The notes under the pieces are model-generated. The model had not been told where the DNA came from and did no database searches. It saw only the letters and a program-made list of their open reading frames with translations. The position numbers were made by a program, and so were the translations under genes. A stretch of DNA of 64,000 nt. It comes from Candidatus Puniceispirillales bacterium (GTDB lineage Bacteria; Pseudomonadota; Alphaproteobacteria; Puniceispirillales; GCA-002684695). Shown here piece by piece: positions 7,614 through 28,902 of this stretch. The stretch is taken from the NCBI GenBank assembly GCA_045565515.1, contig JBJLFF010000019.1, forward strand, positions 46,960 to 110,959, given 5' to 3'. Positions within the stretch are counted from its first letter, which is position 1. Each line of letters begins with the position of its first letter.

Positions 7614-7635
7614 TTATCTTCTTTGTAATTATGCT

Positions 7636-8610
<975 letters not shown>

Positions 8611-8680
8611 CTAAGTTTTTATCTTAAAATCATCTTAACTACAACAGTTTGGTAGCCACAAAATTTAATAATTTATAAAT

Positions 8681-9772: not shown

Positions 9773-9780
9773 TTTTAAAT

Positions 9781-11343: not shown

Positions 11344-11448
11344 TTATCTGTCACACCAATTTTTAAAATTTATTTAATTTTATTTTGCAAACTTTATGAT
11401 TACAAGTAATTGTTTATCAATTAAAAATTTTTGTTCAAGGGATTATAA

Positions 11449-12306
11449 ATGTCAAAAAATAAAGTTGTTCTTCTTGGTACTAAAGGTGGCCCAAGAATGG
11501 AAAAAGGTTTGAGTTGGTCAACATGTTCAGTTATTGAAGTTGAAGGGCATCCTTATATTGTTGATTGTGGGCTTGGTGTTACTAGGCAATTTGTCGAAGC
11601 AGGGTACTCTTTAAGTCAAGTTGATAATATATTTATAACGCACCATCATTCAGATCATAATTTAGAATTTGGTCCTTTAGTTCACACTTTATGGACATCT
11701 GGAACATCTGATCACGTTAATGTTTATGGTCCAAAAGGAACTCAAAACTTACTCGATGGTTTCCTAAAGTCTTTAGAAATTGATATTAATGTTAGAATTG
11801 AAGATGAAAAACAAAGAGATTTAGCTTCAATAATTAAAGTTTCAGAAATTTCTGAAGGTTTAGTCATGGAAGATGAAAGAGTAAAAGTCACTGCTCTAAA
11901 AGTTGTTCATGGGCTATTAGAAAATTGCTTTGCATTCAAATTTGAAACAAAAGACAAAAAAGTTGTTTTTTCAGGTGATACAATTTATTTTCCCCCTCTG
12001 ATTGAATTTTCTAAAGATGCTGATCTCCTTGTTCATGAAGTTATGTTAGAAAGAGGAATAAATGTCCTCGCTGAGAGATTAAAAAAAGTTAAACCTAATT
12101 TAATAGACCATTTAATGATAAGCCATACTACAGCTGAGGACGCAGCTAAGCTTGCAAAAGAAGCTAATGTAAAACACATGGTTTTTAATCACTATGTCCC
12201 TCATATTCCAAAGGAATTTCCTAATTCAGAGTTTGTAGATGCAGCTAAAAGAGTTTGGGATGGAAAAATAACTGCAGGCTATGATTTATGTGAGATTGAT
12301 TTTTAA
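11449..12306 (+). CDS. MBL-fold metallo-hydrolase, first cistron of the pca operon
   Basis: 285 aa. HxHxDH metal motif in FITHHHSDHNLEF, with further His/Asp-containing blocks downstream. Ends 11 nt upstream of pcaD. Confidence 0.75.
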   Translation: MSKNKVVLLGTKGGPRMEKGLSWSTCSVIEVEGHPYIVDCGLGVTRQFVEAGYSLSQVDNIFITHHHSDHNLEFGPLVHTLWTSGTSDHVNVYGPKGTQNLLDGFLKSLEIDINVRIEDEKQRDLASIIKVSEISEGLVMEDERVKVTALKVVHGLLENCFAFKFETKDKKVVFSGDTIYFPPLIEFSKDADLLVHEVMLERGINVLAERLKKVKPNLIDHLMISHTTAEDAAKLAKEANVKHMVFNHYVPHIPKEFPNSEFVDAAKRVWDGKITAGYDLCEIDF

Positions 12307-12317
12307 AAGGATAATTT

Positions 12318-13073
12318 ATGGGAATCAAACTTAATTTTAAATCTCAAGGTCAGGCTCACAATGAAACTATTTTATTTATTCATCCATTAGGAGCTGATCA
12401 TTCGGTTTTTGATTCTGTTATAAATGGTGTCAAAAATACTTATCATTGTATTTCTGTTGATATAAGAGGTCATGGAAAGTCTCCAGTTTTGGAGCCTCCT
12501 TATTCTATAGAAGAAATGGCACAAGATATTGCATCAACTTTTAACTTTGAAAGCCCGATTAATATAATGGGTGTTTCAATTGGTGGAATGATTGCAATGA
12601 GTCTAGAAATTAATAAAATGATACCTATCAAAAAATTAATACTATCTGATACTGGGCATAAAATTGGTAATCATGATCTTTGGCAAGAGAGAGTCGACTT
12701 GGTGCAGGCAGGTGGATTAGAGAAGATTGTTGATATGGCGATAGAAAGGTGGTTTCCCAAGGAATTTAGAGATGCTTCACCAAAAATTATGGAAGAGTGT
12801 AAAAGCCTTCAATTGAAAAATACAGTAAAAGGTTATGTGGGAGCTTGCCAGGCAATTCAATCAGAAGACTTAACAAATCACTTATCAAAAATTACATGCA
12901 AAGTTCTGGTTTTAACTGGTACCAAAGATATTTCAACACCACCTGAACTTGGTAAAGAATTAGCTGCTTTACTCCCTTATGGAAATTTTAAGGAATTAAA
13001 TGGTATTGGGCATGTACCACCTTTACAGAGCCCTGATATGATTATAAATATTTTACAAGAATTTCTAAATTAA
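12318..13073 (+). CDS. pcaD: 3-oxoadipate enol-lactonase
   Basis: 251-aa alpha/beta hydrolase. Nucleophile elbow GVSIGG and C-terminal GIGHVPPLQSP. Immediately precedes pcaC and pcaHG. Confidence 0.8.
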   Translation: MGIKLNFKSQGQAHNETILFIHPLGADHSVFDSVINGVKNTYHCISVDIRGHGKSPVLEPPYSIEEMAQDIASTFNFESPINIMGVSIGGMIAMSLEINKMIPIKKLILSDTGHKIGNHDLWQERVDLVQAGGLEKIVDMAIERWFPKEFRDASPKIMEECKSLQLKNTVKGYVGACQAIQSEDLTNHLSKITCKVLVLTGTKDISTPPELGKELAALLPYGNFKELNGIGHVPPLQSPDMIINILQEFLN

Positions 13074-13085
13074 GATGTTAAGAAA

Positions 13086-13472
13086 ATGACACAGAAAAAT
13101 AAAACGAGCACATATACAAAAGGCATGGAAATTAGGAGACAAGTGTTAGGAATTAAGCATGTTGAAAATGCTATAAAAAATACTAACAAAATTGATGAAA
13201 AATTTCAAAAATTTATAACTGAAGGTGCTTGGGGATCAGTCTGGTCAGGTGATCAGCTTACAAAAAGAGATAGAAGTTTAATAACGATTTCATTATTAGC
13301 AGCATTAGGTCATCATGAAGAGTTAGAAATGCATTTTAATGCATCTAAAAATACAGGCGCGACTTATAGTGAAATTGCTGAAACTTTAATGCATGTTGCT
13401 GTTTACGCAGGCGTGCCAGCATCTAACAGTGCATTCAAAATATTAAAAAAGGTTTTTCAAGAAAGTAAATAG
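13086..13472 (+). CDS. pcaC: 4-carboxymuconolactone decarboxylase
   Basis: 128 aa. CMD-family pattern AWGSVWSGDQLTKRDRSLITISLLAALGHHEEL. Lies in the pca gene context. Confidence 0.85.
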   Translation: MTQKNKTSTYTKGMEIRRQVLGIKHVENAIKNTNKIDEKFQKFITEGAWGSVWSGDQLTKRDRSLITISLLAALGHHEELEMHFNASKNTGATYSEIAETLMHVAVYAGVPASNSAFKILKKVFQESK

Positions 13473-13478
13473 ATCAAT

Positions 13479-14183
13479 ATGCAAAATAATCCATGGAACA
13501 AAAGAGATTGGTCAAACCATCCAGATTTGATTTATCCAGATTATAAATCTACAATTTTGAGGAACCCTCAAAACCCTCTCAAAAAACTAAATAATTTTAA
13601 CGAAATTCCTGGACCCAAGTTTGAAAGCTTTTCAATACGAACGATTGATTCTGATTTAACTTTAAATGCTAAAAAAGACCATAACCCTATAGGAGAAAGA
13701 ATTATTGTACTTGGGCAAGTTAAAGATGAATTTGGTAAGCCAGTACCAAATTGCCTAATAGAAATTTGGCAAGCAAATTCTGCAGGAAGATACGTTCACA
13801 GAGAAGAAATACATGATGCTCCTTTAGACCCCAATTTTTTAGGTGCAGGAATGACACTGACTGATGATAATGGAAATTATAAGTTTACTACAATAAAGCC
13901 CGGCTCTTACCCATGGGGTAATCATCATAATGCATGGCGACCAGCACATATTCATTTTTCTATCTTTGGAAGATCTTTTGTAGATAGACTTGTTACACAA
14001 ATGTATTTTGAAGGTGACCCATTATTTAAATACGATCCAATATTTAATTCAATTCCTGATAAAAAAGCTCAAAATAGACTAATTGCTAAATTTTCAATCG
14101 ATAAAACCGTTCCTGAGTTTGCCCATGCATATGTTTTTGATATTGTCCTCAGAGGGCGACAAGCAACGCCAATGGAAGTTTAA
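13479..14183 (+). CDS. pcaH: protocatechuate 3,4-dioxygenase beta subunit
   Basis: 234 aa. Intradiol dioxygenase blocks IEIWQANSAGRYVH and WRPAHIHFSIFG (iron ligands). Confidence 0.92.
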   Translation: MQNNPWNKRDWSNHPDLIYPDYKSTILRNPQNPLKKLNNFNEIPGPKFESFSIRTIDSDLTLNAKKDHNPIGERIIVLGQVKDEFGKPVPNCLIEIWQANSAGRYVHREEIHDAPLDPNFLGAGMTLTDDNGNYKFTTIKPGSYPWGNHHNAWRPAHIHFSIFGRSFVDRLVTQMYFEGDPLFKYDPIFNSIPDKKAQNRLIAKFSIDKTVPEFAHAYVFDIVLRGRQATPMEV

Positions 14184-14186
14184 AAA

Positions 14187-14756
14187 ATGAAAAAAAATAC
14201 TTTTTTACAAACTTCTTCTCAAACTGTAGGGCCTTTTTTTGCTTATGGGTTAACTGCCCAACAATATAGATATGACTTTCCAAGTCTATTTAATGGTAAT
14301 CTCAGAAAAAATGATATTGATGGAAAAGAAATTTCTATTAAAGGTAGGGTTTTAGATGGGAAAGGTAATCCTTTACATGATGCCATGATAGAGATTTGGC
14401 AAGCTGATCCACAAGGTAATTATAATACTGATCAAAATAGTGATTTTTTAGGTTTCGGGAGAATGGGAACGGGTAGTGACAATTTTATTGGGTTTAATTT
14501 TTTGACATATAAACCTGGAAAAATTAATGATAGTTCCGCGCCTCACATAAATTTAACAGTTTTTGCTAGAGGGATGCTTAATCATTTATTTACTAGAATA
14601 TATTTTTCTGATGAGAAAAACGAAATTGATGAAGTATTTAATCAAGTTGATCCATTACTAAGACCAAGATTAATTGCTGAAAAAGTTAATGAAGAAGAAT
14701 ATTATTTTGATATAATTCTTCAGGGTGAAAATGAGACGATATTTTTTGACATATAG
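14187..14756 (+). CDS. pcaG: protocatechuate 3,4-dioxygenase alpha subunit
   Basis: 189 aa. IEIWQADPQGNY and APHINLTVFARG blocks. Starts 3 nt after pcaH. Confidence 0.9.
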   Translation: MKKNTFLQTSSQTVGPFFAYGLTAQQYRYDFPSLFNGNLRKNDIDGKEISIKGRVLDGKGNPLHDAMIEIWQADPQGNYNTDQNSDFLGFGRMGTGSDNFIGFNFLTYKPGKINDSSAPHINLTVFARGMLNHLFTRIYFSDEKNEIDEVFNQVDPLLRPRLIAEKVNEEEYYFDIILQGENETIFFDI

Positions 14757-14776
14757 AATTTAATTAGGATGTTTTA

Positions 14777-15637
14777 ATGACAAAATTTTTATCATTAGAG
14801 GAGGGAGTAAGAGAAAATCTTAAACCTGGCAACCAAGTTTGTTTTGAGGGTTTTACACACCTAATTCCTCATGCTTCTGCTCATGAGGTTATTCGCCAAA
14901 AGATAGGCAGCTTAACTATAGTAAGAATGACACCCGATGTGATTTATGATCAGCTAATCGGAATGGGGTTGGTTAAGAAAATGATTTTTTCATATGCTGG
15001 GAATCCAGGAGTGGGTCTTTTAAGAAGGTTTCGTGACTCAGTTGAAAATGGATGGCCTAATAAAATTGAAATAGAAGAGCATTCTCATTCAGCTATGGCC
15101 CATGCTTATGAAGCGGGTGCTGCTGGTTTGCCATGTGCTATATTTCGGGGTTACATGGGCGCTGAATTAAGGGAGGTTAATTCAAATATAAAAGAAGTAA
15201 CTTGTCCATTTACTGGTGAAGAATTAACTGCAATACCTGCTTTAAATCCTGATGTAGCATTTATTCATGCGCAAAAGGCAGATAAAAAAGGAAATGTTTT
15301 AATTGAGGGAATACTAGGTGTTCAAAAAGAAGCCGTTTTAGCATCAAAAAGATCAATAGTAACTGTAGAGGAAATAGTAGAAAAATTAGATTGTCACCCC
15401 AACACAACAATACTTCCATATTGGACAACATCTGCAATTTGCCATGTTCCTGGAGGCGCTCACCCATCCTATGCTAGAGGTTATTATAAAAGAGATAACG
15501 CAAACTATATTGAGTGGGATAAAATTGCTTCTGACAGAGCAACTTTTTTAAGCTGGATGCAAGAAAATGTTATTAAAGTGTCCCCAAAAATATTTCAAAA
15601 TAGAATAAAAAATTTAAAAGAAGATGAAAATGAATAA
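14777..15637 (+). CDS. pcaI: 3-oxoadipate CoA-transferase subunit A (family I CoA-transferase)
   Basis: 286 aa. Glutaconate/3-oxoacid CoA-transferase A-subunit-like sequence. Overlaps the B subunit by 14 nt and lies between pcaG and pcaF. Confidence 0.8.
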   Translation: MTKFLSLEEGVRENLKPGNQVCFEGFTHLIPHASAHEVIRQKIGSLTIVRMTPDVIYDQLIGMGLVKKMIFSYAGNPGVGLLRRFRDSVENGWPNKIEIEEHSHSAMAHAYEAGAAGLPCAIFRGYMGAELREVNSNIKEVTCPFTGEELTAIPALNPDVAFIHAQKADKKGNVLIEGILGVQKEAVLASKRSIVTVEEIVEKLDCHPNTTILPYWTTSAICHVPGGAHPSYARGYYKRDNANYIEWDKIASDRATFLSWMQENVIKVSPKIFQNRIKNLKEDENE

Positions 15638-16415
15638 TAATTATTCTCCTGATGAAATGATGACTATAGTTGCATCAAGAGCTCTTAAGAATGATGATGT
15701 TTGTTTTGTTGGAATTGGAGCTCCGTCTGCAGCCTGTAATATAGCTAGATTAACTCACGCTCCAGACATAACACTTATCTATGAAAGTGGAACTATAGGT
15801 ACTGCACCAAATATTTTGCCTCTTTCGATTGGTGATGGGGAGCTATGTGAAACTGCTCTCACAACAGTTTCAGTTCCTGAAATGTTTAGGTATTGGCTTC
15901 AGGGTGGTAGGATTACTATTGGGTTTTTGGGTGCTGCTCAATTAGATAAGTTTGGAAATATTAATACAACAGTAATTGGAGATTACAGTGGACCCAAAAC
16001 TCGTTTGCCGGGTGGAGGTGGGGCTCCTGAAATAGCTTCATCTGCAAAACAAGTATATATAACAATGAAGCAATCTCTTAGAGGTATGGTAGAAAAAATA
16101 GATTTTTTCACTAGTTTTGGACATGGATCAGGAGGAAACGAGAGAAAATCAAGAAATATTAATACTGAAGGACCAAGTTTGTTAATAACAGATTTAGCAA
16201 TTTGGAAACCAGATCCGATTTCCAAGGAGTTTACTGTTCATTCACTTCATACTGGCGTTTCTAAAGAAATGGTCCAAGATAGTTGTGGGTGGAAGGTAAA
16301 GTATTCTGACAACATTGAAGTTACTGAACCACCTACAGAATTAGAATTAAAAACTTTAAGGGATTTAAAGGAAAGAACAAAAATAGCAAACTCAAGGAAA
16401 GATACAAACTTATGA
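15624..16415 (+). CDS. pcaJ: 3-oxoadipate CoA-transferase subunit B
   Basis: 263 aa. Catalytic-Glu region LIYESGTIG and glycine-rich loop LPGGGGAPE. ATGA overlap with pcaF. An alternative ATG lies at 15630. Confidence 0.8.
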   Translation: MKMNNNYSPDEMMTIVASRALKNDDVCFVGIGAPSAACNIARLTHAPDITLIYESGTIGTAPNILPLSIGDGELCETALTTVSVPEMFRYWLQGGRITIGFLGAAQLDKFGNINTTVIGDYSGPKTRLPGGGGAPEIASSAKQVYITMKQSLRGMVEKIDFFTSFGHGSGGNERKSRNINTEGPSLLITDLAIWKPDPISKEFTVHSLHTGVSKEMVQDSCGWKVKYSDNIEVTEPPTELELKTLRDLKERTKIANSRKDTNL

Positions 16416-17614
16416 AAGATGCTTTTATATGTGATGCAATTAGATCACCTATTGGAAGATTTGGTGGAAGCCTTGCAACAATTAGAGCTGATGATCTAGC
16501 ATCACTTTCATTAAAAGAATTAATAAAAAGAAATAGCTCAATAAATTGGGAAGACGTGGATGAGGTTGTTTTTGGCTGTGCTAATCAATCTGGTGAAGAT
16601 AATAGGAATGTAGCTAGGATGTCGCTATTACTTGCTGGACTGCCTCAAACAATTCCTGGAATTACAATCAATAGACTATGTGCTTCAGGATTAGAAGCTG
16701 TTACATATGCTGCTAGAATGATTAAATCTAATGAAGCGGATTTAGTCATTGCAGGTGGTGTAGAGAGTATGAGCAGAGCTCCATTTGTTATTCCAAAGTC
16801 ATCATCAGCTTTTTCAAGAAACGCTGAGATTTATGATACGACTATAGGATGGAGATTCATAAATCCAATCATGAAAGAAAAATATGGTGTTGATTCTATG
16901 CCAGAGACAGGAGAAAATGTTGCAGAACAATGGAATATAAGTAGAGAGGATCAGGATAAGTTTGCATTTTGGTCTCAAAAAAAGACTTCCAAAGCAATAT
17001 CATCTGGAAGATTTAAAAACGAGACTTTTAATATAAAAATTAATTTAAAAAAGAATGAAATAATTTTTAGAGGTGATGAACATCCTCGAGAGACTAGCAT
17101 AGAAAAACTAAACTCCTTACCAACTCCATTTAGAAAAAATGGAACTGTAACTGCGGGAAATGCAAGTGGAGTCAATGATGGCTCTGCTGCATTGATAATA
17201 GCATCAGAACAAGCAGTAAAAAAATATAACCTAAATCCAAGAGCAAAAATTATAAATTCTGCGGCGGTTGGTGTTGAACCAAGAATTATGGGAATTGGTC
17301 CTGTTGGAGCCACAAAAAAGGCTCTTTCACTTTCAAACCTAAATTTAGATAATATTCAAGTAATAGAATTAAATGAAGCTTTTGCCTCACAAGCTTTGGC
17401 AACGATTCGAGATTTGGGATTATCTGATGATGATGATCGTGTAAATATTAATGGTGGGGCAATAGCTTTAGGCCATCCATTGGGTATGTCAGGTGCTCGT
17501 TTGGTTCTAACTGCCACTGAAGAGTTACATCAAAATAATAATAATAAGATGGCTCTTTGTTCTATGTGTGTAGGTGTAGGACAAGGAAGTGCGATAATTC
17601 TTGAAAAAACTTAA
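16412..17614 (+). CDS. pcaF: 3-oxoadipyl-CoA thiolase
   Basis: 400 aa. Thiolase motifs [10 protein letters not shown] (active Cys), [24 protein letters not shown] and CVGVGQG. Confidence 0.9.
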
Positions 17615-17649
17615 ACTTCAAATTTTTAGCTAATTTACTTTTGGAACAA

Positions 17650-18240
17650 TTATAAGGCTTTAAGGTTAAGATTTTTTCGGAATCTATTTTTTAACTCTAC
17701 TCCGTCTAATATAGGCAAACTTCTGGGTGGTAGTTGGGGTTCAACTTTTATATTTGCAAAAATGGGACCGTCAATAGGTGGAAGATAATCTATCAAATTA
17801 TTTAAATCATTATCAGATTTTACAGAAAAACTATGTTTAAAATTTGAAGCTTTTGCAATTTTATGTAGATCAACTCCAAATGAAGTATGGCTTTTTTGCA
17901 TTCCAGTTTCTCCATAATAGCCATTATCTAAAACTATAATAGACAAGTTATTTGGTTTTTGAACACCAATTGTTGCGAGTGAACCCACTCCCATTAATTG
18001 TTCGCCATCTCCAGTTATTACTATTACTGGTAAATTTGGATTAGCCATTGCTAGTCCAAGCCCAACCATTGCAGCACCTCCCATGGCACCCCATAAGTAA
18101 AAGTTTGAATCATTATCACCAGCATCAAATACATCATATGTTGGTGACCCTAAACCAGTAATTATCTTAGCTGCTTTTCGATTATCAACTATCTGTTTTA
18201 CAACTGATCTTCTTTTTAAATTAATATCTTTTCCTACCAT
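17650..18240 (-). CDS. comE: TPP-dependent sulfopyruvate/phosphonopyruvate decarboxylase, beta subunit
   Basis: 196 aa. TPP-binding motif ITGDGEQLMG...LDNG. Overlaps the alpha-subunit gene by 7 nt. The split two-subunit layout matches ComDE-type enzymes. Confidence 0.65.
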   Translation of the reverse strand: MVGKDINLKRRSVVKQIVDNRKAAKIITGLGSPTYDVFDAGDNDSNFYLWGAMGGAAMVGLGLAMANPNLPVIVITGDGEQLMGVGSLATIGVQKPNNLSIIVLDNGYYGETGMQKSHTSFGVDLHKIAKASNFKHSFSVKSDNDLNNLIDYLPPIDGPIFANIKVEPQLPPRSLPILDGVELKNRFRKNLNLKAL

Positions 18241-18749
18241 TCTTTTCTTCCAAGTAATCTTTGGGATAATAAAACAGCAATTTGTTGGTCACTTGAAAAG
18301 GCACTGTATAATGCTGCATCAGTAAAAGAGATTACATCTATTGGATTAGTAGCTTTATGAACTACTACACCCATATTTTCTAGGCAACCTTGCGTAGCTT
18401 TACCCATTGGAACTTGCCATGAATTAAATTCTCCAAATTCTCCACGCATAGTAATCAAAGTAACAAAAGGGAAATTACAATTTGACAATAATGAAAGCAT
18501 GTTAATACAGTTTCCAACACCACTGCTTTGCATTAAAAGAACAGATTTTTTGCCACCAAGCCAACAACCACCTGAAAAGGCAACACCCTCTTCTTCAGTA
18601 CTTAAAACTATAGGTTTTATAGATTGATCTTCTTCTGAAAGTGAAATTAATTTGGCATGTCCTGCATCAGGTACATATGGCAAAAAATTAATTTTATGCC
18701 TTTTTATAATGTCAAATAAATTTTTTTCCCAGTTGTTGTCAGTAATCAT
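18234..18749 (-). CDS. comD: TPP-dependent sulfopyruvate/phosphonopyruvate decarboxylase, alpha subunit
   Basis: 171 aa. Pyrimidine-binding half of a TPP enzyme (LSTEEEGVAFSGGCWLGGKKSVLLMQSSGVGN). Coupled to the beta subunit. Confidence 0.65.
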   Translation of the reverse strand: MITDNNWEKNLFDIIKRHKINFLPYVPDAGHAKLISLSEEDQSIKPIVLSTEEEGVAFSGGCWLGGKKSVLLMQSSGVGNCINMLSLLSNCNFPFVTLITMRGEFGEFNSWQVPMGKATQGCLENMGVVVHKATNPIDVISFTDAALYSAFSSDQQIAVLLSQRLLGRKEW

Positions 18750-18924
18750 TTCTTTTGTAAATAATGTTTCTCTTTGAAAATAAAAATATATTTTAACTTA
18801 ATAATTATATTACTGATAAATAGAATCAATAATTAAACTATTTTATTAAATTTAAATTATTTTGATTAACATTAAATATAAAGCTATCTTTAAAATATTA
18901 ATTCTCATTAATTAAAAGTTAGTT

Positions 18925-20478
18925 ATGATTACAGAAGTAAAAAGAAGAAATAAAAGAAAAAATCATCAGGATGATTTCAAGCAAATTGATCCAGTTATCT
19001 CAAAAGGTATGGAAGGTGGTAATTACAAACCATTAAGTGATAACGATATAAAAAAAATATATTCAACTGCATTAGAAGTATTAGAAAACTTAGGCGTTGG
19101 AAACCCATTGCCAGAACTATTAGATGCTGCAATTAATCAAGGTTGTAAAGTTAATGATGAAGGCAGGTTATGTTTTCCAAAGTCATTAGTAGAGGATGTA
19201 ATCAGTAGGGCAGGAAGGAACTTTACTTTATATGGGAGAGATCCAAAATATGACATTGAGCTTTCTGGAAATAAAGTCAATTTATTTGGAGCTGGTGAGG
19301 CAGTTTCAGTATTAGATTTGGGAGCAAATAAGTATCGCCCTTCAACTATCAACGATGTTTATGATATTGCTAGGATGGTCGACTATTTAGATAATATTCA
19401 TAGCTATTCCAGATTTGTGGTTCCAACAGAATTAAGTGAAGATTTATTGGTTGCTGACATTAACACAGCTTATGCAAGTTTAATGGGCACACAAAAGCAT
19501 ACGGCCCTTACATTTTCGGATGGAAAAAATGTTAAACCGACACTTGAAATGCTAGATATAATTGCAGGGGGAGAAGGAGAGTTTATAAAAAGACCATTTT
19601 GTCATGGAGGTGGCTGTACTATCGTTTCACCTTTACAATATGGAACTGATAATTGCGAAGTGGCTCTAGCATCATTACAATTAAATGCTCCAATTTGGGT
19701 TGTAATAGCACCTCAATCTGGAGCCACGGCACCTGCAGCTCTTGCAGGGTGTTTAGTACAGGCTTTAGCAGAGACTTTGGCGAGTCTTTTACTTATAGAT
19801 CTTATTAAACCAGGGCATCCTGTTATTTTTGGCCCTTGGCCTTTTGTTACAGACTTAAGAACAGGTGCTTTTTCTGGTGGTGGAGGTGAAGAAGCAATTA
19901 TGAGTGCAGCTTCAGCACAAATTACTAATTATTGCGGATTAGTTAGTTCAGTAGGTGCTGGTATGACTGATGCTAAAAGTCCTGATGCTCAGGCAGGTTA
20001 CGAAAAAGGTATTTCAATAGTGATGGCAGCATTAGCTGGTTGTAATAATGTCTCTGAATCTTCTGGAATGATGGCAAGTTTAATGGGATGCTCTTATGAG
20101 TCTCTTGTTATTGATAATGAAATGCTAGGTATGGTAATGAGAGTTGTTCGGGGTATTGAAGTCAACGATGATACTTTGTCTTATGACGTTATTAAGAAAA
20201 CTATTAAGGGTGAGGGGCACTTTTTAAGATCATCTCAAACATTGTCTCTCATGAAAACAGAGTATTTATATCCAGAATTAGCAGATAGATCTAGGCAAGA
20301 AGAATGGGAAGTTGAGGGTTCACCAGATATGAGAAAAAGAGCTGAACTTCATGCAAGAAAAATCTTAAACTCACATTATCCAGTTTATATAGATGATGAA
20401 ACTGATAAAAAAATTCGCGATAGATTCCCCATAAAAATAACAAAAAATATCATTAAACCTGATGCTAATAGGTTTTAA
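18925..20478 (+). CDS. MttB-superfamily (trimethylamine methyltransferase-like) protein, non-pyrrolysine type
   Basis: 517 aa. N-terminal pattern PLSDNDIKKIYSTALEVLENLGV is typical of the MttB family. The frame is uninterrupted, with no in-frame TAG. Confidence 0.75.
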   Translation: MITEVKRRNKRKNHQDDFKQIDPVISKGMEGGNYKPLSDNDIKKIYSTALEVLENLGVGNPLPELLDAAINQGCKVNDEGRLCFPKSLVEDVISRAGRNFTLYGRDPKYDIELSGNKVNLFGAGEAVSVLDLGANKYRPSTINDVYDIARMVDYLDNIHSYSRFVVPTELSEDLLVADINTAYASLMGTQKHTALTFSDGKNVKPTLEMLDIIAGGEGEFIKRPFCHGGGCTIVSPLQYGTDNCEVALASLQLNAPIWVVIAPQSGATAPAALAGCLVQALAETLASLLLIDLIKPGHPVIFGPWPFVTDLRTGAFSGGGGEEAIMSAASAQITNYCGLVSSVGAGMTDAKSPDAQAGYEKGISIVMAALAGCNNVSESSGMMASLMGCSYESLVIDNEMLGMVMRVVRGIEVNDDTLSYDVIKKTIKGEGHFLRSSQTLSLMKTEYLYPELADRSRQEEWEVEGSPDMRKRAELHARKILNSHYPVYIDDETDKKIRDRFPIKITKNIIKPDANRF

Positions 20479-20481
20479 AGA

Positions 20482-21258
20482 TTAACGTCTTTCAACCATT
20501 AATTTCTTTATTTCACCAATAGCTTTTGCAGGGTTTAATCCTTTGGGGCAAGTTTTTGAGCAATTCATTATAGTATGACATCTATAAAGTTTAAATGGAT
20601 CTTCTAACGCATCTAAACGTTCTCCAGTACTTTCGTCTCTACTATCTGCTATCCATCTGTAGGCTTGAAGGAGGACCGCTGGTCCAAGATACTGGTCTCC
20701 ATTCCACCAGTAAGAAGGGCAAGAAGTTGAACATGAGAAACATAAAACACACTCCCATGCACCATCTAGGACTGCTCTTTCTTCTTTAGATTGTCTTCTC
20801 TCACCATCTGTAGGGGGGCTGTCTGATTTTAGCCATGGTTCAATAGAACTTAATTGTGCATATGCTTTACTTAAATCTGGAACTAAGTCTTTTACAACGC
20901 TCATATGAGGAAGAGGAAAAATAACAACATCGCCTTTTACATCTTCAATACTTTTTAAACAAGCAAGGGTATTAGTACCATCTATATTCATTGAACAAGA
21001 GCCACAAATACCTTCTCTGCATGATCTTCTAAAAGTTAGGCTCCCATCAACTTCACTTTTAATTTTTATAAGTGCATCCAAAACCATTGGACCACAATCA
21101 TCTTTATCAATCGTAAAGGTATCAACTCTGGGATTACTATCATCATCTGGTGACCATCTGTATATTTTAAAAGTTTTTTGCTCACCGTCAGTTTTGGGCT
21201 TTGGGTGTTCGTGACCTTCAATAATCTCACTATTTTTTGGTAATTTAAACTCTGCCAT
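20482..21258 (-). CDS. sdhB: succinate dehydrogenase iron-sulfur subunit
   Basis: 258 aa. Three Cys clusters: [15 protein letters not shown] (2Fe-2S), [12 protein letters not shown] (4Fe-4S) and [12 protein letters not shown] (3Fe-4S). Confidence 0.95.
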
Positions 21259-21265
21259 AATTTAC

Positions 21266-23056
21266 CTAATAAACTCTTGCTACAGGTGCAATACTTTGCA
21301 CCTCATTGGTTAATGTTGATAATTTTACGTCTCTGTATCCCAGTTTAGACTTATTCTTCTCATCAAGCCACATGACTGTATGCTTCATCCAGTTTTTATC
21401 ATCACGTTCTGGATAATCTTCATGCGCATGTGCGCCTCTCGATTCCTGTCTCTCATTGGCAGAGCGTATTGTCACCAGTGCCTGACCCAACAGATTATCA
21501 AGCTCTAACGTTTCAACCAGATCTGTATTCCAAATCAGCGATGTATCCTGCAGACGAACATTTTGCATATCCATTGCAATATCACCTAACTTCCTCACAC
21601 CTTCATCAAGTACTTCTGTGTTACGGAACACAGCAGCATGTCTTTGCATAGCCTTTTGCATATCCAGTCTTAACTCAGCTGTTGAGACATCACCTTTTGA
21701 ATGACGGATACGATTAAAACGGTCTAATATTTTTTGTGTAGCTGATTCGGCTAGAGGCGGTAGAGACTCACCCGGCTTCATTGTCTCTGAAGCACGCTGT
21801 GCAGCAGCACGTCCAAATACAACAATATCTAATAAAGAGTTTGTTCCCAAACGGTTGGCTCCATGGACAGACACACAAGCAGCTTCTCCAATTGCCATCA
21901 GACCAGGTGCTGTACGGTCAGGATCTTTAGCTGTTGGTGACAGAACCTCACCATGGTAATTGGTTGGAATACCTCCCATGTTATAATGTACTGTTGGAAG
22001 CACTGGAATCGGTGCCCGTGTCACATCCACACCACAGAAGATCTTTGCTGTCTCTGTAATGCCTGGTAATTGCTTATGCAATGTCTCTGGATCGATATGT
22101 TCAAGATGAAGCATGATATGATCATTATCATTACCGACACCACGTCCTTCGTTGATCTCAACTGTCATGGCACGACTGACAACATCTCGGCTTGCAAGGT
22201 CTTTGGCTGTTGGAGCATAACGCTCCATAAAGCGCTCACCTTCTGAGTTGGTTAGATACCCTCCTTCACCTCTGGCACCTTCTGTAATTAGAACACCCGC
22301 ACCATAGACACCTGTTGGATGGAACTGGACAAACTCCATATCCTGAAGAGGCAGACCTGCCCTTAATACCATGGCATTACCATCACCTGTACAGGTATGT
22401 GCTGATGTACATGAGAAGTAAACACGGCCATAACCACCTGTTGCTAAAACAGTCTTCTGGGCACGAAAGCGGTGAAGGGTACCATCTTCCATACATAAAG
22501 CCAGGACACCGCAGCATCTGCCTTCATCATCCATGAGTAGATCAAGGGCAAAATACTCGATAAAAAACTCTGCCTTATACTTCAGGCACTGCTGATACAA
22601 CGTATGAAGGATGGCATGACCTGTCCTGTCTGCCGCAGCGCACCCACGTCGCGCCATAGCCTTGCCCTGTTCGAGGGTATGGCCACCAAATGGTCTTTGA
22701 TAGATCTTGCCTTCTTCTGTCCTTGAGAAAGGCACACCATAATGTTCAAGCTCGATCACTGATGGAATGGCATTCTTGCACATATACTCAATTGCATCCT
22801 GATCACCCAGCCAGTCAGATCCCTTGACCGTATCATACATATGATACTGCCAACTATCATTATCTCCCATATTGCCTAATGCAGCACTAATACCGCCCTG
22901 AGCAGCAACAGTATGTGATCGTGTTGGAAAGACTTTAGTGATGCAGGCTGTCTTAAAGCCTTCTGCTGTCATGCCTAACGTTGCACGAAGACCGGCACCA
23001 CCTGCACCCACAACCAAAACATCATACTCGTGATCTGTTATAGGATAACTCGTCAT
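21266..23056 (-). CDS. sdhA: succinate dehydrogenase flavoprotein subunit
   Basis: 596 aa. [11 protein letters not shown] dinucleotide fold and covalent-FAD histidine block [10 protein letters not shown]. Followed by sdhB. Composition is anomalous (see findings). Confidence 0.95.
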
Positions 23057-23178
23057 AAAGAACTCTAAAATTTGATTTAATTATATATAATATAAATATT
23101 ACAATACAAAATAACAAAAATATGTTTATTTTTTTTATATATGGTTTAATTAAAGTTCATTTGGGTAGGAAAAATTAT

Positions 23179-24219
23179 ATGAAATTTCAGCTAGCGGTAA
23201 ATCTTGAACGACAATCTTCTCACCAAGATATGAAGACTGTCGCAGATCATACTTTAGAAATGGTTAAAAAAGCTGATAAAGGTGGTTTTAATATTGTTTG
23301 GTCTGCAGAACATCATGCATTAGAAATGACCATAGCACCTGACCCATTTCAACTTCTTACATGGTGGGCGACACACACTGAAAAAATTAGATTAGGAACA
23401 GCTGTTGCTGCAGCTCCATATTGGCACCCTATAAAATTAGCTGGTGAAGCTGCTATGACAGATTTAATTTCTAATGGCAGGTTAGAATTTGGAATAGGCT
23501 CTGGGGCATATCAAAGAGAGTTTGATCGTATGTTTCCAGGTTTGAAACAATCAGATGCATGGAAATTCATGCAAGAGTCACTGCCAGCAATTAAAGCATT
23601 GTGGAAAGGCGACTATGAACATAAGGGAGAGTTTTGGTCATTTCCAATGTCAACCTCTGTTCCTAAACCAATTCAAGATCCTCATCCACCAATATGGGTT
23701 GCAGCTAGAGCTCCTATTACATATGATTTTGCTGTTGAACATGAATGTAATATAATGTCTTGGCCTCTTACAAGACCAATGTCTGAAGCAGAGCTATATA
23801 AATCCAGACTAGATGAGGCGATGAAAAAGTTTCCAAATAAACCTAAGCCAATATTTTCTATGATGAGACATACAGCTGTTTATGAAAATAAACAAGATTG
23901 GGAAATTCCTGTAAAGGCCCTAACAAAAGTCCTTGGGCAATTTGAAAATTTATTTAAAAATCTTGGTGATGTAGAAAATGGCTTTACAAAAGTTATACCT
24001 TTAAATGAATTAGAAGATAGAGAACAATACAACCCAAAAATGTTAGATGAAAATTTGATGTTTGGTACCCCAGAAGAAATTATAAAAAAATTAAAGTTAT
24101 ATGAAAAATTGGGTGTTGATGAATTTATATATTATGCAACATTTGGTTTGGGGCATGAAGAACAACAAAAATCGATAGATTTATTTATCTCCGAAGTAAT
24201 GCCAGAGTTTCTGAATTAA
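23179..24219 (+). CDS. luciferase-like (LLM class) flavin-dependent oxidoreductase
   Basis: Starts MKFQLAVNLE. Contains the FNIVWSAEHHALE block typical of LLM enzymes. The track start at 23122 adds a hydrophobic 19-aa extension with no family precedent. I prefer the ATG at 23179, which has an AGGA upstream. Confidence 0.8.
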   Translation: MKFQLAVNLERQSSHQDMKTVADHTLEMVKKADKGGFNIVWSAEHHALEMTIAPDPFQLLTWWATHTEKIRLGTAVAAAPYWHPIKLAGEAAMTDLISNGRLEFGIGSGAYQREFDRMFPGLKQSDAWKFMQESLPAIKALWKGDYEHKGEFWSFPMSTSVPKPIQDPHPPIWVAARAPITYDFAVEHECNIMSWPLTRPMSEAELYKSRLDEAMKKFPNKPKPIFSMMRHTAVYENKQDWEIPVKALTKVLGQFENLFKNLGDVENGFTKVIPLNELEDREQYNPKMLDENLMFGTPEEIIKKLKLYEKLGVDEFIYYATFGLGHEEQQKSIDLFISEVMPEFLN

Positions 24220-24239: not shown

Positions 24240-25400
24240 ATGCTGATGACACAAAATCATGAACAAGAATTATTAGAAAAAACAGTAAAAAGATTCGTAG
24301 AGGAAGAATTATACCCACACGAAGAAACTGTTGATACAAATGGCGAAGTCCCTATTGATCTTGGTAGGCAAATAGAAAAAAGATCAAAAGAAGTAGGACT
24401 TTTTGCTGCTAACTTGCCATCTAATGTTGGCGGCGGTGGATTAGATTATGAAAGCATGCATCTAATTGAACGTGAATATGGTAAAACAAGTCATGCCCTC
24501 CATGCATGGGCAGCCAGACCAACCGAAATTCTATTAGCGTGTGAAGATGACCAAATAAAAAACTATTTAGACCCCTGTGTTACTGGTGAGAAAAGAGAGT
24601 TATTTGCTTTAACAGAACCAGAAGCAGGTTCTGACATAATGTCCATGAAAAGTAATGCTAGAAAAGATGGAGACGACTGGATCCTGAATGGGTCAAAGCA
24701 CTTCATATCTGGTCCTGTAATGCCAGATTTTGCAATAGTATTCGCTTCTACTGGAGAAGATGAAACACCTAGAGGTAAAAGGAAAAGAATTACTGCATTT
24801 TTAGTTGATGTTGGTGAAAAAGGATTTGAAATAGGAGTTGGATCAAAGTGTGTTAGTTACAGGGGGCACCATGCATTCAGATTAAATTTTTCAGACGTTC
24901 GTTTAGGTCCTAATCAAATTTTAGGGGAAGAAGGAAAAGGACTAGAGCTATCTGGCAAGTGGCTTGGAATGGGAAGGATTTGGGTTGGAGCTTCATGTTG
25001 TGGCAAAGCAGAAAGATTGTTTGAGTTAGCAAAGGATTGGGCTGCATCAAGAAAGCAATTTGGTCAACCAATTGGTAAGTTCCAAGCAACAGGATTTAAA
25101 TTAGCAGACATCGCTATAGAATTAAGAGCGGCAGATCTTTTAGTGAAAGATGCAGTGAAAAGAGCAAACGAAGGACAAATGTCCGATGCAGATGCCGCTA
25201 TGGTAAAAGTTTTTTGTTCTGAAATGCTTAATAAAGCTGCTGATAGTACTGTTCAGCTTTATGGTGGAATGGGCTTAATGGAAGAATTACCAATTCAAAG
25301 ACTATGGAGAGATTCTCGACTTGAAAGAATATGGGACGGAACCTCTGAAATACAAAGGCATATTATCACACGGTCTATTTTAAGACCCTTAGGTGCATGA
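24240..25400 (+). CDS. acyl-CoA dehydrogenase family protein
   Basis: 386 aa. LTEPEAGSD block and C-terminal IWDGTSEIQRHII (catalytic Glu region). Confidence 0.88.
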   Translation: MLMTQNHEQELLEKTVKRFVEEELYPHEETVDTNGEVPIDLGRQIEKRSKEVGLFAANLPSNVGGGGLDYESMHLIEREYGKTSHALHAWAARPTEILLACEDDQIKNYLDPCVTGEKRELFALTEPEAGSDIMSMKSNARKDGDDWILNGSKHFISGPVMPDFAIVFASTGEDETPRGKRKRITAFLVDVGEKGFEIGVGSKCVSYRGHHAFRLNFSDVRLGPNQILGEEGKGLELSGKWLGMGRIWVGASCCGKAERLFELAKDWAASRKQFGQPIGKFQATGFKLADIAIELRAADLLVKDAVKRANEGQMSDADAAMVKVFCSEMLNKAADSTVQLYGGMGLMEELPIQRLWRDSRLERIWDGTSEIQRHIITRSILRPLGA

Positions 25401-27499
25401 GAACCAATCAACTAAACAACCTTAACAGACTATTTAATCCAAAGAATATAGCAGTTTTTGGCGGTAACGATGCTGAAATAGTTATTTCTCAATGTAAAAA
25501 AATGGGGTTTAAAGGTGAAATTTGGCCTGTAAATCCAAAAAGGGATTTAATTAATGGAATTAAATGTTTCTCTTCTGTAAATGACCTTCCAAAAGGACCC
25601 GATGCTTCATTTATAGCAGTTCCAAGACAACCAGCAATTGAAATAGTTAAACAATTAAATGAAATGAATTCTGGCGGTGGTGTATGCTATACAGCTGGAT
25701 TTAGAGAGGTTGGAGAAGAAGGCTCAAAGCTTGAAAAAGAACTTTTAGACAATGTTGGTGACTTTGCATTAATTGGCCCAAATTGTTATGGAATGATAAA
25801 TTATGTTAATAAAATAGCTCTTTGGCCTTTTGACCACGGAGGTAATTTCCCAGGTTTTGGTGCAGCAGTTATTACTCAAAGTGGAATGCTTTCAAATGAC
25901 CTTTCCACTAGTCGTAGATCAATGCCTTTTGCATATATGGTGTCAGCTGGAAACCAGTCTGTTTTATCAATAGAAGACTATGTAGATTTTTTTTCTCAAA
26001 AAGAAGAAGTTAAAGCCATTGGTCTTCATATAGAAGGCCTCCAAGACATAGAAAAATTTCAAAGAGGCTGCTTAAAGGCATTAGAAAGAAAAGTACCCAT
26101 CGTCGCAATTAAAACTGGTTCATCAACCATAGGTAATAATCTTGTAAGCAGTCATACCGGATCGCTATCAGGGACAGATGAAATATATAACTCATTATTT
26201 GATCATTTAGGTATAATAAGAGTAACAAACCCACATGAATTTTTGGAAACGCTAAAGTTTTTATGTATTTCTGGTCCAGTTTCTGGAAAAAGAGTTGCTG
26301 CATTTACTTGCTCTGGTGGAGGCGCCACAATGCTTGCAGATTATGCTGAAAAAATTAATTTAGAATTTAATCAACCATCAAAAAAAGTAGATTGTGAACT
26401 AAAAAAATTACTTCCTTTAACAGCTACCGTTTCTAATCCTTTAGATTATACTACACCAATATGGGGGCAGCCTGAGAAAACAGGCCCTGTTTTTAACACG
26501 TTTTTTAAAGATAAATATGATTGTGCCATTTTAGTCCAAGATTATTTACCACCAGGAATTAATGAGCTTAATAAGTATTATTTATATGATGCAAAAGCTT
26601 TTTTTGAAGCTTCTCAAAAACTTAAATTACCTTCTATAATTTGTAGTACTGTCCCAGAAAATAATGATCCAGAAATATCTGATTTTTTTGTTAGCAATAA
26701 GGTTACTCCATTACAAGGATTAGAGGAAGCACTGAATGCTGTGAAACGAAGTTACAAATTTAATCAACGATATAAAGATTACCTTGATGGCAAAGTCTTT
26801 GTTAAAAAATCTATCACAAATTCTTTAAAAAATCCTTTGATGCTAAATGAAATTGAGTCGAAATCAATTCTTAAAAAAATTGGTTTGAGAATACCAAGTT
26901 TTTTGAACGGGAAAAATTATTTAAATGCAAATAATTCTAATGATCAAAACTTTAAATTAAATTTTCCAGTTTGCGCAAAAATGGTTAGTAATGATGTTGA
27001 ACATAAAACTGATATAGGTGCAATACAGTTAAATATTAATAGTTTAAATGAACTTAATTTAGCTCTTAAAAAAATAGAAATTAACGTCAAAAATGCTAAA
27101 ATAAGTTTTACAGATGATTTTCTTGTCGAAGAAATGCAGCCTAGTCCACTAGGAGAGCTTTTAGTTGGTATATTTTATGACCAACAATTTGGATATGTAA
27201 TGACGATAGCTTCTGGTGGTATACTAGCTAACCTATTGGAGGATTCGATTTCTATTTTACTTCCAGCATCTTCAGATGAAATAGATAGTTCTTTAAAAAA
27301 ATTAAAAATTAATAAGTTATTTTCTGGTTACCGAGGGAAAAAAGAAATTAATAGGAAATTACTTTTAAAAAACTTAAAAAAACTTTCTGATTTTGTAATT
27401 GACCCAAATAATAAAATTCAACAATTAGAAATAAACCCGTTATTTGTTTTTGAAGAAAACAATGTAGCTGTTGATGCCATTATTTGGAAATCTAAATGA
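25397..27499 (+). CDS. ADP-forming acyl-CoA synthetase (fused alpha/beta, acetate--CoA ligase family)
   Basis: 700 aa. CoA-binding start NPKNIAVFGGND, SucD-like IGPNCYG, phosphohistidine block SSHTGSLSG and a C-terminal ATP-grasp half. ATGA overlaps on both sides. Confidence 0.85.
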   Translation: MRTNQLNNLNRLFNPKNIAVFGGNDAEIVISQCKKMGFKGEIWPVNPKRDLINGIKCFSSVNDLPKGPDASFIAVPRQPAIEIVKQLNEMNSGGGVCYTAGFREVGEEGSKLEKELLDNVGDFALIGPNCYGMINYVNKIALWPFDHGGNFPGFGAAVITQSGMLSNDLSTSRRSMPFAYMVSAGNQSVLSIEDYVDFFSQKEEVKAIGLHIEGLQDIEKFQRGCLKALERKVPIVAIKTGSSTIGNNLVSSHTGSLSGTDEIYNSLFDHLGIIRVTNPHEFLETLKFLCISGPVSGKRVAAFTCSGGGATMLADYAEKINLEFNQPSKKVDCELKKLLPLTATVSNPLDYTTPIWGQPEKTGPVFNTFFKDKYDCAILVQDYLPPGINELNKYYLYDAKAFFEASQKLKLPSIICSTVPENNDPEISDFFVSNKVTPLQGLEEALNAVKRSYKFNQRYKDYLDGKVFVKKSITNSLKNPLMLNEIESKSILKKIGLRIPSFLNGKNYLNANNSNDQNFKLNFPVCAKMVSNDVEHKTDIGAIQLNINSLNELNLALKKIEINVKNAKISFTDDFLVEEMQPSPLGELLVGIFYDQQFGYVMTIASGGILANLLEDSISILLPASSDEIDSSLKKLKINKLFSGYRGKKEINRKLLLKNLKKLSDFVIDPNNKIQQLEINPLFVFEENNVAVDAIIWKSK

Positions 27500-28902
27500 C
27501 CTTAATTCACCGTCTATTTCTATTCATTATTTTTATATTATTTCCGGTCATTTCTTTTGCGCATGTTTCAGAAAGAGCTTTAATTCTTTTACTTCCAACA
27601 GAATTTTATATTCCAGCTGGTATTTCAGTTTTAATACTCACGATTTTAATAGCTTATTTAACTCCAGTCTCATTCATAACATCTCTTTTCAAATCTCATG
27701 AATTGAAAATTAATTTTAATAAATATATTTCTATAAACCAACTTGAAAATTTGAAAATTTTTACGAGCTGTGTAAGTTTTTTATTTTTGATAATTTTAAT
27801 AATTTTTGGGTTTATAGGCTCCAGAGACCCACTAGCAAATCCTTTATCCCTATTTATTTGGTCAGTTTGGTTTATGGTAATGCCTGTAATTCAGATTCTG
27901 TTAGGTAACGCTTGGGCATTTTTAAATCCTTGGTATGGAATAGGAAAATTATTTTTTAAAGATAAGAAAGTCTATAAATTAAATAGTAATTACTCGCTTA
28001 TATTTTCGTCAGCAGGATTTTTACTTTTTTCAATGTTTATGTTAGTGGACATTGCTCCTGATGACCCTGACAGGCTTGCAAATATTGTAACTCTATACTT
28101 TTTAATAAATCTTTTGTTTGTAAAGATTTTTGGTGTCAATTGGCTTGAAAAGGGTGAATGTTTTACCGCATTTTATGGATTACTGTCTAAATTGTCATGG
28201 ATTTGGATAATGGAAGGCAAAATTCATATTGGTTTTTTTGGTTCTCAACTTAAAAAAATTAAAACGTTTCCTTCTTTGTCTGTTTTGTTTTTATCAATAA
28301 TTTTAGCAACATTATCTTTTGATGGATTAAATGAAACATTTCTTTGGTTCAAGGTAATTGATGTAAACCCTTTAGAGTTTCACGGAAGATCATCAGTTAT
28401 TATTGAGAACTCCTTTGGTTTAATTTTTTTTGCGGTAATGTTATTTTTTATATTTTCAATAACTATATTTTTAGGTCATAAATTTATAAATGAAAGAGTA
28501 CCTTTTAAAGAAATCATAGGCATCAACTCCATTGCACTTCTACCGATCGCTCTTGCTTATCATATAGCTCATTATTTGACATCATTTTTGGTAAACATAC
28601 AATATTCATATAAAGTAGCTTCTGACCCTCTAAACAATGGCAAAGACTTTTTTAATATAGGTGATTTTAATGTTACCACTAGTTTTTTTAATACTATTGA
28701 AACAGTTAAACTAATTTGGTTTATTCAAGCATCAGCAATTGTCATAGGGCATGTCATAGCTGTTTTGTTGGCTCATTCAATTTGTGAGGGATATCTAAAA
28801 AAGAAATCGTCTATATTAATCAGTCAATTCCCAATTAGTATATTTATGATTTGTTATACTTTTCTTGGATTATGGATACTATCAACGCCAACAGTCGGAT
28901 AA
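27496..28902 (+). CDS. polytopic membrane protein of unknown function
   Basis: 468 aa with roughly 10-12 hydrophobic segments. N-terminal signal-like segment ends VISFA/HVSE. Paired His residues sit in late helices (AYHIAHYL, IGHVIAVLLAH). Translationally coupled (ATGA) to the synthetase gene. Confidence 0.7.
   Translation: MTLIHRLFLFIIFILFPVISFAHVSERALILLLPTEFYIPAGISVLILTILIAYLTPVSFITSLFKSHELKINFNKYISINQLENLKIFTSCVSFLFLIILIIFGFIGSRDPLANPLSLFIWSVWFMVMPVIQILLGNAWAFLNPWYGIGKLFFKDKKVYKLNSNYSLIFSSAGFLLFSMFMLVDIAPDDPDRLANIVTLYFLINLLFVKIFGVNWLEKGECFTAFYGLLSKLSWIWIMEGKIHIGFFGSQLKKIKTFPSLSVLFLSIILATLSFDGLNETFLWFKVIDVNPLEFHGRSSVIIENSFGLIFFAVMLFFIFSITIFLGHKFINERVPFKEIIGINSIALLPIALAYHIAHYLTSFLVNIQYSYKVASDPLNNGKDFFNIGDFNVTTSFFNTIETVKLIWFIQASAIVIGHVIAVLLAHSICEGYLKKKSSILISQFPISIFMICYTFLGLWILSTPTVG

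Follow-up and report, generated by a model that had tools for sequence, protein, structure and literature searches.

The gene sdhA, which encodes the flavoprotein subunit of succinate dehydrogenase, was revealed to be a genuine single-gene compositional outlier within the 64,000-nt stretch of Candidatus Puniceispirillales contig JBJLFF010000019.1 analysed herein (hereafter, the window), with a z-score of 7.1 for the G+C content at third codon positions (GC3). In a judgement that we hold to be about evenly balanced between right and wrong, it is a functional, co-inherited gene kept at a clade-wide, gene-specific and actively maintained mid-GC equilibrium, a state that was either inherited from the ancestor or acquired in a single capture from a mid-GC relative within the family. 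The original prediction, made from the letters of the window, had singled out sdhA for its composition and for its separation from sdhC/sdhD at this locus, both of which held up, and had proposed a xenologous replacement of the flavoprotein gene or, alternatively, an assembly chimera; the former was not supported in that form, and the latter was excluded. The gene, its most GC-rich part and its partner gene lie as follows.

21266-23056, minus strand: sdhA, succinate dehydrogenase flavoprotein (assigned by open reading frame (ORF), composition and TIGR01816)
22427-22876, minus strand: GC3 peak of sdhA, codons 61-210 (from in-frame 30- and 60-codon profiles)
20482-21258, minus strand: sdhB, iron-sulfur subunit, 7 nt after the sdhA stop; GC3 0.216, normal

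The whole window has a G+C content (GC) of 33.2%, and sdhA (596 aa) has a GC of 0.457, with 0.586, 0.430 and 0.353 at the first (GC1), second (GC2) and third codon positions, respectively. Among the remaining 53 ORFs of at least 150 aa, total GC averaged 0.333 (standard deviation 0.028; z = 4.4 for sdhA) and GC3 averaged 0.191 (standard deviation 0.023); the sliding GC, GC3 and codon-usage check that had been proposed with the prediction thus placed sdhA outside the GC3 range of the window's other ORFs, the maximum of which was 0.233. Sliding windows of 1791 nt over the 64 kb reached their maximum of 0.456 at a start of 21251, and the best value outside the neighbourhood of sdhA was 0.376. The hand counts of 60-nt lines given earlier were reproduced as well (48.3% for 21441-21500, 46.7% for 22381-22440 and 65.0% for 22621-22680 in sdhA, and 35.0% for 20881-20940 in sdhB). 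With a GC3 of 0.320 in the first 50 codons and 0.314 in the last 51, the anomaly spans the gene from start codon to stop codon, and the island is exactly the ORF with no internal breakpoint; the fading described for the last ~150 nt turned out to be an effect of amino-acid composition. Sliding identity along sdhA against the relatives L082, L002 and L083 (contigs and genomes are designated herein by L numbers, and proteins by P numbers) likewise gave no switch indicative of an internal recombination breakpoint. At codons 61-210 the GC3 was 0.40-0.50 in the window and 0.40-0.57 in L171. In L082, a low-GC relative, no part of the gene is richer in AT than these codons (0.10-0.17).

The codon table bore out the claim that sdhA favours G/C-ending codons, with fractions of 0.67 for AAG, 0.49 for GAG, 0.65 for CAG, 0.65 for CGN and 0.40 for ATC, as against 0.17, 0.21, 0.19, 0.16 and 0.08, respectively, in the other genes of the window; unlike these codons, GAC, CAC and TAC were not raised. 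The four-fold site frequencies (A.34, C.15, G.14, T.37) and the codon dialect resembled those of the 43%-GC relative L002, both in its sdhA (GC 0.452, GC3 0.332) and in its other genes. The amino-acid composition was also mid-GC-like, with a GARP/FYMINK ratio of 1.3 versus 1.03 in L082 and P0022.

The product matched the NCBIfam profile TIGR01816 (sdhA_forward) with 963 bits at a cut-off of 727, residues 9-596 corresponding to profile positions 1-584, and its translation contains the covalent-FAD motif RSHT. Comparison with the sdhA of L001 gave a dN of 0.024, a dS of 0.71 and a dN/dS of ~0.03, indicating strong purifying selection. By these sequence features, sdhA is a bona fide SdhA gene and is predicted to be functional; it is present in one copy within the 64-kb window.

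The same ORF-bounded anomaly, with a sdhA GC3 of 0.34-0.43, was found in at least seven independent assemblies of low-GC marine alphaproteobacteria. The contigs concerned stem from independent projects, encode SdhA proteins 87-96% identical to that of the window and have low-GC flanks. Their GC3 values were as follows.

L001: sdhA 0.342; flanks 0.21-0.24
L171: sdhC 0.15, sdhD 0.26, sdhA 0.37 (0.370), sdhB 0.22
L176: sdhA 0.377
L087: sdhA, 3' fragment, 0.43
L088, L089 and L090: sdhA 0.34

The anomaly was reproduced in L172 too, and low-GC flanks were found in all seven lineages (eight distinct assemblies) in which the context of sdhA was read. L176 was moreover colinear with the window at 80% nucleotide identity, both junctions included, from the genes for an acyl-CoA synthetase-like protein (ACS), an acyl-CoA dehydrogenase (ACAD) and a luciferase-like (LLM) oxidoreductase on one side through sdhA-sdhB-mttB on the other, and the two junctions thereby recur in a second species-level lineage. 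Across 90 sdhA loci, the GC3 of sdhA tracked the GC of the locus, and only the clade of the window stood ~0.15 above the trend. Since the other genomes of 28-34% GC (L082, L085, L086, L004 and L030) have an ordinary sdhA GC3 of 0.16-0.21, the composition is not forced by protein conservation, in agreement with the earlier statement that conservation alone does not explain the shift. In particular, L082 and L085 carry a low-GC sdhA (GC3 0.16-0.18) whose product shares 83% amino-acid identity with that of the window. The 90% identity cluster of this SdhA (P0001) comprises 479 members. Exact look-up found no record of the window SdhA sequence, a genome-collection scan with SdhA and a metagenome scan with its variable C-terminal part gave no close relatives among the matches listed, and the literature search on a compositional anomaly of sdhA found nothing relevant.

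In order of identity, the best 120 database matches of SdhA comprised its own clade (96-86%), the low-GC type represented by L082 (83%) and the Puniceispirillaceae (SAR116), which formed a plateau at 79-81%, and the matches of SdhB were distributed in the same manner. A neighbour-joining tree with 200 bootstraps united the GC-rich clade with the low-GC SdhA of L082/L085 and P0022 (96.5%), and quartet analysis of SdhA separated the GC-rich and L082 clades from mid-GC SAR116 plus outgroups with 100% support, also after Dayhoff-6 recoding; compositional attraction would work against this grouping. SdhB quartets gave the same topology with 94-100% support. In addition, sucC, mdh and AFG1 of the window lay nearer to their L082 counterparts than to those of L002 and L083, both of which are mid-GC genomes, and the flanking ACAD and sdhA showed the same branching order, ((window,L001),L176). 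On these trees there is no apparent sign of a distant donor and no incongruence of sdhA. The congruence of the SdhA and SdhB topologies and the sharing of the composition by relatives are the very outcomes that the original prediction had named as speaking against a foreign origin. SAR116 has been described to contain a subclade of 38-51% GC and an uncultured, streamlined subclade of ~30.5% GC living together (PMC8547437). We infer that the group of the window belongs to the low-GC SAR116-like marine alphaproteobacteria, with which its 33% GC and very short spacers are in good agreement.

With mid-GC outgroups, six SdhA replacements were fixed on the stem of the GC-rich clade, with no GC direction, and 16 on the L082 branch, of which 12 were AT-ward and 10 were not shared by P0022. 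Because the L082 replacements are AT-ward and mostly unshared with P0022, SdhA would appear to have drifted towards AT independently in the sister lineages, and the GC-rich sdhA looks undrifted.

The divergence of silent sites was expressed as p4/psat, the four-fold differences divided by their saturation value; Nei-Gojobori (NG86) dS and paralinear distances were unstable near saturation and were set aside in its favour. For sdhA, p4/psat was 0.54 between the window and L001, 0.66-0.68 between the window and L171/L176, and 0.70-0.72 between L001 and L171/L176. For the same genome pairs, the flanking sdhB, mttB, pcaF, pcaJ, pcaI, pcaH, ACAD, LLM and ACS genes gave 0.87-1.09, or 0.87-0.99 apart from pcaH, which offers 68 sites. 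When synonymous changes at third positions were polarised with L171, the branches of the window and L001 together showed 39 GC>AT versus 49 AT>GC; the more distant L088 was discarded as the outgroup for parsimony polarisation, as it was too saturated and, according to the L082/L085 control, biased towards AT>GC. F81-type simulations were matched to the observed distances and to the GC3 of the tips. The counts were reproduced under stationarity at a GC3 of 0.35 (P about 0.4), and neutral decay was rejected for both of the end points tried, 0.19 (P <= 0.002) and 0.25 (P 0.01-0.02). Taken with the congruent genealogy, this stationarity would mean that sdhA kept an equilibrium of its own while its neighbours saturated. 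An overlapping gene or a structured RNA was considered as the cause of the silent-site constraint and rejected: no stop-free alternative frame longer than 174 nt was common to five GC-rich sdhA genes, the region of the GC3 peak folded no better than its shuffles (z = +0.94), and Rfam gave no match in sdhA.

The absence of sdhC and sdhD next to sdhA, which had also been pointed out, was confirmed by tblastn with four different SdhC/SdhD pairs, none of which matched within the 64 kb. On its upstream side, sdhA faces the following elements.

23057-23178, no strand: divergent spacer between sdhA and the LLM gene, 122 nt, 13.9% GC
23179-24219, plus strand: LLM (luciferase-like) oxidoreductase gene, divergent from sdhA (NCBIfam LLM matches)
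24240-25400, plus strand: ACAD, in colinear order with LLM (window, L001 and L176)
25397-27499, plus strand: ACS, ADP-forming acyl-CoA synthetase-like gene, likewise colinear with LLM in these three

The start of the LLM gene is most likely 23179 and not 23122, as judged from the MKFQLA start common to L001 and L176, and with this start the 122-nt AT-rich spacer described earlier stands. The spacer was 84% conserved among the window, L001 and L176, in which the four-fold sites of the flanking genes are saturated, and probably acts as a promoter/operator region for both genes; within it lie an extended conserved block, AAAAAATAAACATATTTTTGTAATTTT..., and a promoter-like site for sdhAB, TTGTTA-17-TATATT, at 23117-23089 on the minus strand (a consensus match only). 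Annotation of the neighbours with Pfam and NCBIfam, together with a tRNA scan, gave metabolic and transport genes only, and neither mobile-element genes nor tRNAs near sdhA.

The full order sdhC-sdhD-sdhA-sdhB is present in L171, L082 and L002. L171 reads GMC / sdhC-sdhD-sdhA-sdhB / mttB / comDE / pcaFJIGH and is colinear with the window at 77% nucleotide identity from sdhA codon 4 (23047) to 13120; the synteny with the sdhCDAB relatives ends at the spacer, the L171 alignment stopping at window position 23047. In L089, which has sdhC-sdhD-sdhA, the sdhD stop overlaps the sdhA start and only sdhA is GC-rich. The window thus shares with the canonical alphaproteobacterial sdhCDAB operon the adjacency of sdhA and sdhB, with a 7-nt spacer, and differs from it in having, like L001 and L176, the divergent LLM-ACAD-ACS cluster upstream in place of sdhC/sdhD. 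This replacement of sdhCD was found only in these three, where the LLM gene occupies the place that sdhD holds in the relatives. Since L171 and L089 have a GC-rich sdhA in place behind low-GC sdhC-sdhD, the anomaly and the operon break are separate events: the former is older than, and independent of, the replacement of sdhCD by LLM-ACAD-ACS, and the breakpoint of a xenologous replacement that had been placed at the 5' end of sdhA was not borne out.

On the downstream side, sdhB is detached from sdhA in L001 and L089. Among L171, the window/L176, L001 and L089, all four combinations of sdhA neighbours (sdhD or LLM upstream; sdhB or a GCV_T-family gene downstream) occur, which implies that breakpoints arose repeatedly, and precisely at either end of sdhA. 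A 4.16-kb sdhA-sdhB-mttB core was found to be 99% identical between L171:2287-6446 and L176:4109-8268, with unrelated flanks on both sides, namely sdhCD/GMC and comDE in L171 and LLM-ACAD-ACS and tctB in L176; this could reflect duplication, strain-level rearrangement or mosaic assembly.

All these observations can be accommodated if sdhA belongs phylogenetically to its own family-level group and would have been co-inherited with its flanks since at least the common ancestor of the window, L001, L171/L176, L087 and L088-90. Throughout this sub-clade only the ORF would be mid-GC (GC ~45%, GC3 ~0.35, a dialect like that of 43%-GC relatives), its synonymous sites changing two to three times more slowly than the flanks with GC>AT and AT>GC in balance. 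As its silent changes are slow and balanced, sdhA does not appear to be a decaying leftover, and a gene-specific fixation bias, through selection on synonymous sites or GC-biased conversion, would presumably hold the equilibrium. The state could be the retained ancestral mid-GC one, in keeping with the AT-ward and lineage-specific L082 replacements, or could go back to a single ancient capture from a mid-GC relative within the family. In the window/L001/L176 sub-lineage, sdhC/sdhD would have been lost from the locus in a separate, later rearrangement, after which sdhAB would depend on a conserved promoter region of its own that also serves the divergent LLM gene, and the membrane-anchor genes would lie elsewhere in the genome. 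If this is true, streamlined, AT-rich marine genomes can keep the composition of a single gene far away from mutational equilibrium, and sdhA offers a clean natural experiment on how selection or biased conversion acts at silent sites. It is routine to take single-gene GC outliers for recent horizontal transfers or misassemblies; the present one is reproducible, native at the family level and stationary, and compositional detectors of horizontal gene transfer would mis-call it.

Several points weigh against such a maintained equilibrium. We found no mechanism that acts on sdhA but not on the co-transcribed sdhB or sdhCD, and the maintaining force evidently does not operate in L082 and P0022, the sister lineages. 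Strict synapomorphies are thin, numbering three for the window plus L082 versus two for the window plus mid-GC genomes, and all the trees, neighbour-joining and quartets alike, are distance-based and not maximum-likelihood trees with heterogeneous models. The stationarity and rate tests rest on parsimony polarisation and F81-type simulation at ~500 sites in one well-suited triple. The 99% identical core of L171 and L176 with its unrelated flanks implies recombination or mosaic assembly at this very locus, which could distort the divergence comparisons. Lastly, the clade was sampled as contigs, and other very conserved genes elsewhere in the genome may share the anomaly or a second sdhA may exist there.

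An unlikely but serious alternative is a single old xenologous (homeologous) replacement of sdhA by the allele of a mid-GC family member at the base of the sub-clade, with neutral amelioration still under way. Low- and mid-GC subclades of SAR116 reportedly live together (PMC8547437), the deviation is bounded by the ORF, L002 has nearly the same codon dialect and four-fold base frequencies, the amino-acid composition is as mid-GC-like as noted above, and the sister lineages carry a low-GC sdhA. However, sdhA was not incongruent with SdhB or ACAD, none of the best 120 database matches was a closer relative from a mid-GC genome, and no contig showed a donor context, all seven lineages (eight assemblies) having low-GC flanks. 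Furthermore, the polarised synonymous changes gave no GC>AT excess, with neutral decay rejected, and silent-site divergence is lower in sdhA than in the saturated flanks, so that the gene does not evolve neutrally under the mutation regime of the host. In the framework of Lawrence and Ochman, GC3 islands arising from horizontal transfer, including xenologous displacement, are said to ameliorate subsequently. Like such an island, sdhA is a single essential gene that deviates in GC, GC3 and codons next to a native partner gene; unlike it, sdhA is congruent, lacks a mobile context, shows no amelioration, is shared by the sub-clade and looks stationary. In the form originally predicted, xenologous replacement is at odds with the missing amelioration, the congruent quartets, the composition shared by relatives and the absence of a mobile context.

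It is distinctly unlikely, to our mind, that the locus is a lineage-specific recombination hot spot at which GC-biased conversion, or an equivalent fixation bias, would have held sdhA ~16 GC3 points above mutational equilibrium over the time in which all neighbouring silent sites became saturated, and which would also generate the rearrangements at both ends of the gene. The four neighbour combinations and the 4.16-kb core of 99% identity with unrelated flanks are in its favour, and the GC1, GC3 and four-fold C and G of sdhA are all raised; however, the effect stops at the ORF ends, the spacer having 13.9% GC and sdhB a normal composition. GC-biased gene conversion in bacteria, the subject of Lassalle et al. 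in 2015, is said to have modest and regional effects. A fixation bias towards GC opposing AT-biased mutation would indeed give both a raised stationary GC3 and a lower substitution rate, as seen in sdhA, at a locus that bears signs of recombination and rearrangement; the difference lies in a shift of +16 GC3 points that stops at the ORF ends and spares the spacer and sdhB.

Repeated, recent and gene-precise imports of sdhA into each low-GC lineage from unsampled mid-GC donors, which would explain the stationarity, the low silent divergence and the mid-GC dialect together, and with which the variation of sdhA neighbours among lineages in all four combinations would be compatible, appear quite improbable. 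At least five independent replacements with identical, ORF-exact limits would be needed, the branching order of sdhA is that of the flanking ACAD, sdhB and mttB, and no contig carries this sdhA in mid-GC flanks, although the 90% cluster holds 479 sequences. Viral carriers were not found either, the best matches on viral contigs being 61-62% identical, and a phage-borne sdhA was rejected on the same ground.

Very improbable, too, is classical translational selection, by which sdhA would be highly expressed and enriched in optimal codons, with a lower dS and a shifted GC3 as the outcome. Codon-usage selection with reduced dS in highly expressed genes is reportedly the pattern described by Sharp and Li and by Akashi. 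A lowered silent divergence combined with an unusual choice of codons is the textbook mark of this process, and sdhA resembles such genes in having a silent divergence below that of its neighbours and a codon usage of its own. It differs from them in that its partners in the complex and operon are unaffected, namely the stoichiometric, co-transcribed sdhB and, in L171, sdhC/sdhD. Likewise, the three solute-binding-protein genes of transporters in the window have a GC3 of 0.18-0.21, and these together with sucABCD and mdh span 0.16-0.21. The enriched codons are G-ending Lys, Glu and Gln codons plus CGN rather than the usual C-ending (NNC) set, with GAC, CAC and TAC not raised, and the sister lineage L082 is without the bias.

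The chance that the sdhA of another, more abundant organism was spliced into the contig by assembly is practically negligible: although metagenome chimeras do occur at this locus, as in L173, L174 and about ten database SdhB records in which foreign N-termini are joined at a 30-nt identical stretch, such an artefact would call for two joints placed precisely at the ends of the ORF. Moreover, at least seven assemblies, produced by different projects with different assemblers, carry the anomaly; their sequences share 87-96% identity, and their flank contexts differ but are all low-GC and never mid-GC. The arrangement LLM / sdhA-sdhB-mttB recurs with the composition in L176, and the composition alone in L001, L171/L172, L087 and L088-L090, by which the chimera suggested earlier was excluded.

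The L173 and L174 contigs provide a positive control for chimeric assembly at this locus, and the GC-rich sdhA does not resemble them. Their flank is 99% identical to that of L171, their SdhA is 64% identical, and the break lies inside sdhB. In a gammaproteobacterial context (L175), the same SdhA is accompanied by sdhB, sdhE and pdxJ genes of its own, and the parents of the chimera share just 30 identical nt at the conserved Fe-S motif of SdhB. A recent xenologous replacement of sdhCDA in L173/L174 was thus considered and rejected in view of the L175 context, the 30-nt parental overlap and the roughly ten similar SdhB joints; these two contigs and the ~ten SdhB records most likely arose as chimeras during metagenome assembly and found their way into the public protein databases. 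The chimeric SdhB sequences (L173:10001-10777, L174:1342-2118; proteins P0124, P0125 and P0269-P0277) take their first ~80 residues from other organisms, of several types including the gammaproteobacterial one of L175, fused to the C-terminal part of the SdhB of the clade. Public metagenome assemblies hold many chimeric SdhB joined at the conserved Fe-S motif. The SdhB of the window itself is 93% identical to that of L171/L176.

Downstream of sdhB, the window contains a block of conserved synteny.

18925-20478, plus strand: mttB-like gene
17650-18749, minus strand: sulfopyruvate-decarboxylase-like pair
14777-17614, plus strand: pcaF and two CoA-transferase subunits
13479-14756, plus strand: pcaH/pcaG

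The conserved synteny of the block from 13479 to 20478 shows sdhAB to lie at its ancestral locus. Against L082 (32% GC), synteny was found over window positions 1410-17614, covering sucBADC-mdh-AFG1-sulfatase and then lactamase-hydrolase-pcaHG. In L082, sdhCDAB directly abuts pcaG; in the window and L171, pcaIJF, the sulfopyruvate-decarboxylase-like pair and mttB lie in between.

The mttB-like gene (plus strand) and sdhB (minus strand) converge at 20478-20482 with 3 nt between their stops, leaving no room for a terminator. Inside the mttB-like gene, Rfam PYLIS_3, the mttB pyrrolysine insertion sequence, matched 19963-20062 on the plus strand with 55 bits, and the ORF (18925-20478) has no in-frame stop codon; the gene is presumably a non-pyrrolysine member of the MttB family that retains the sequence of the PYLIS_3 element. 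Finally, the ORF at 27496-28902 (plus strand, 468 aa) gave no Pfam or NCBIfam match and has the lowest GC1 in the window (0.339); it sits between the ACS-like gene and a branched-chain amino-acid ABC transporter operon.

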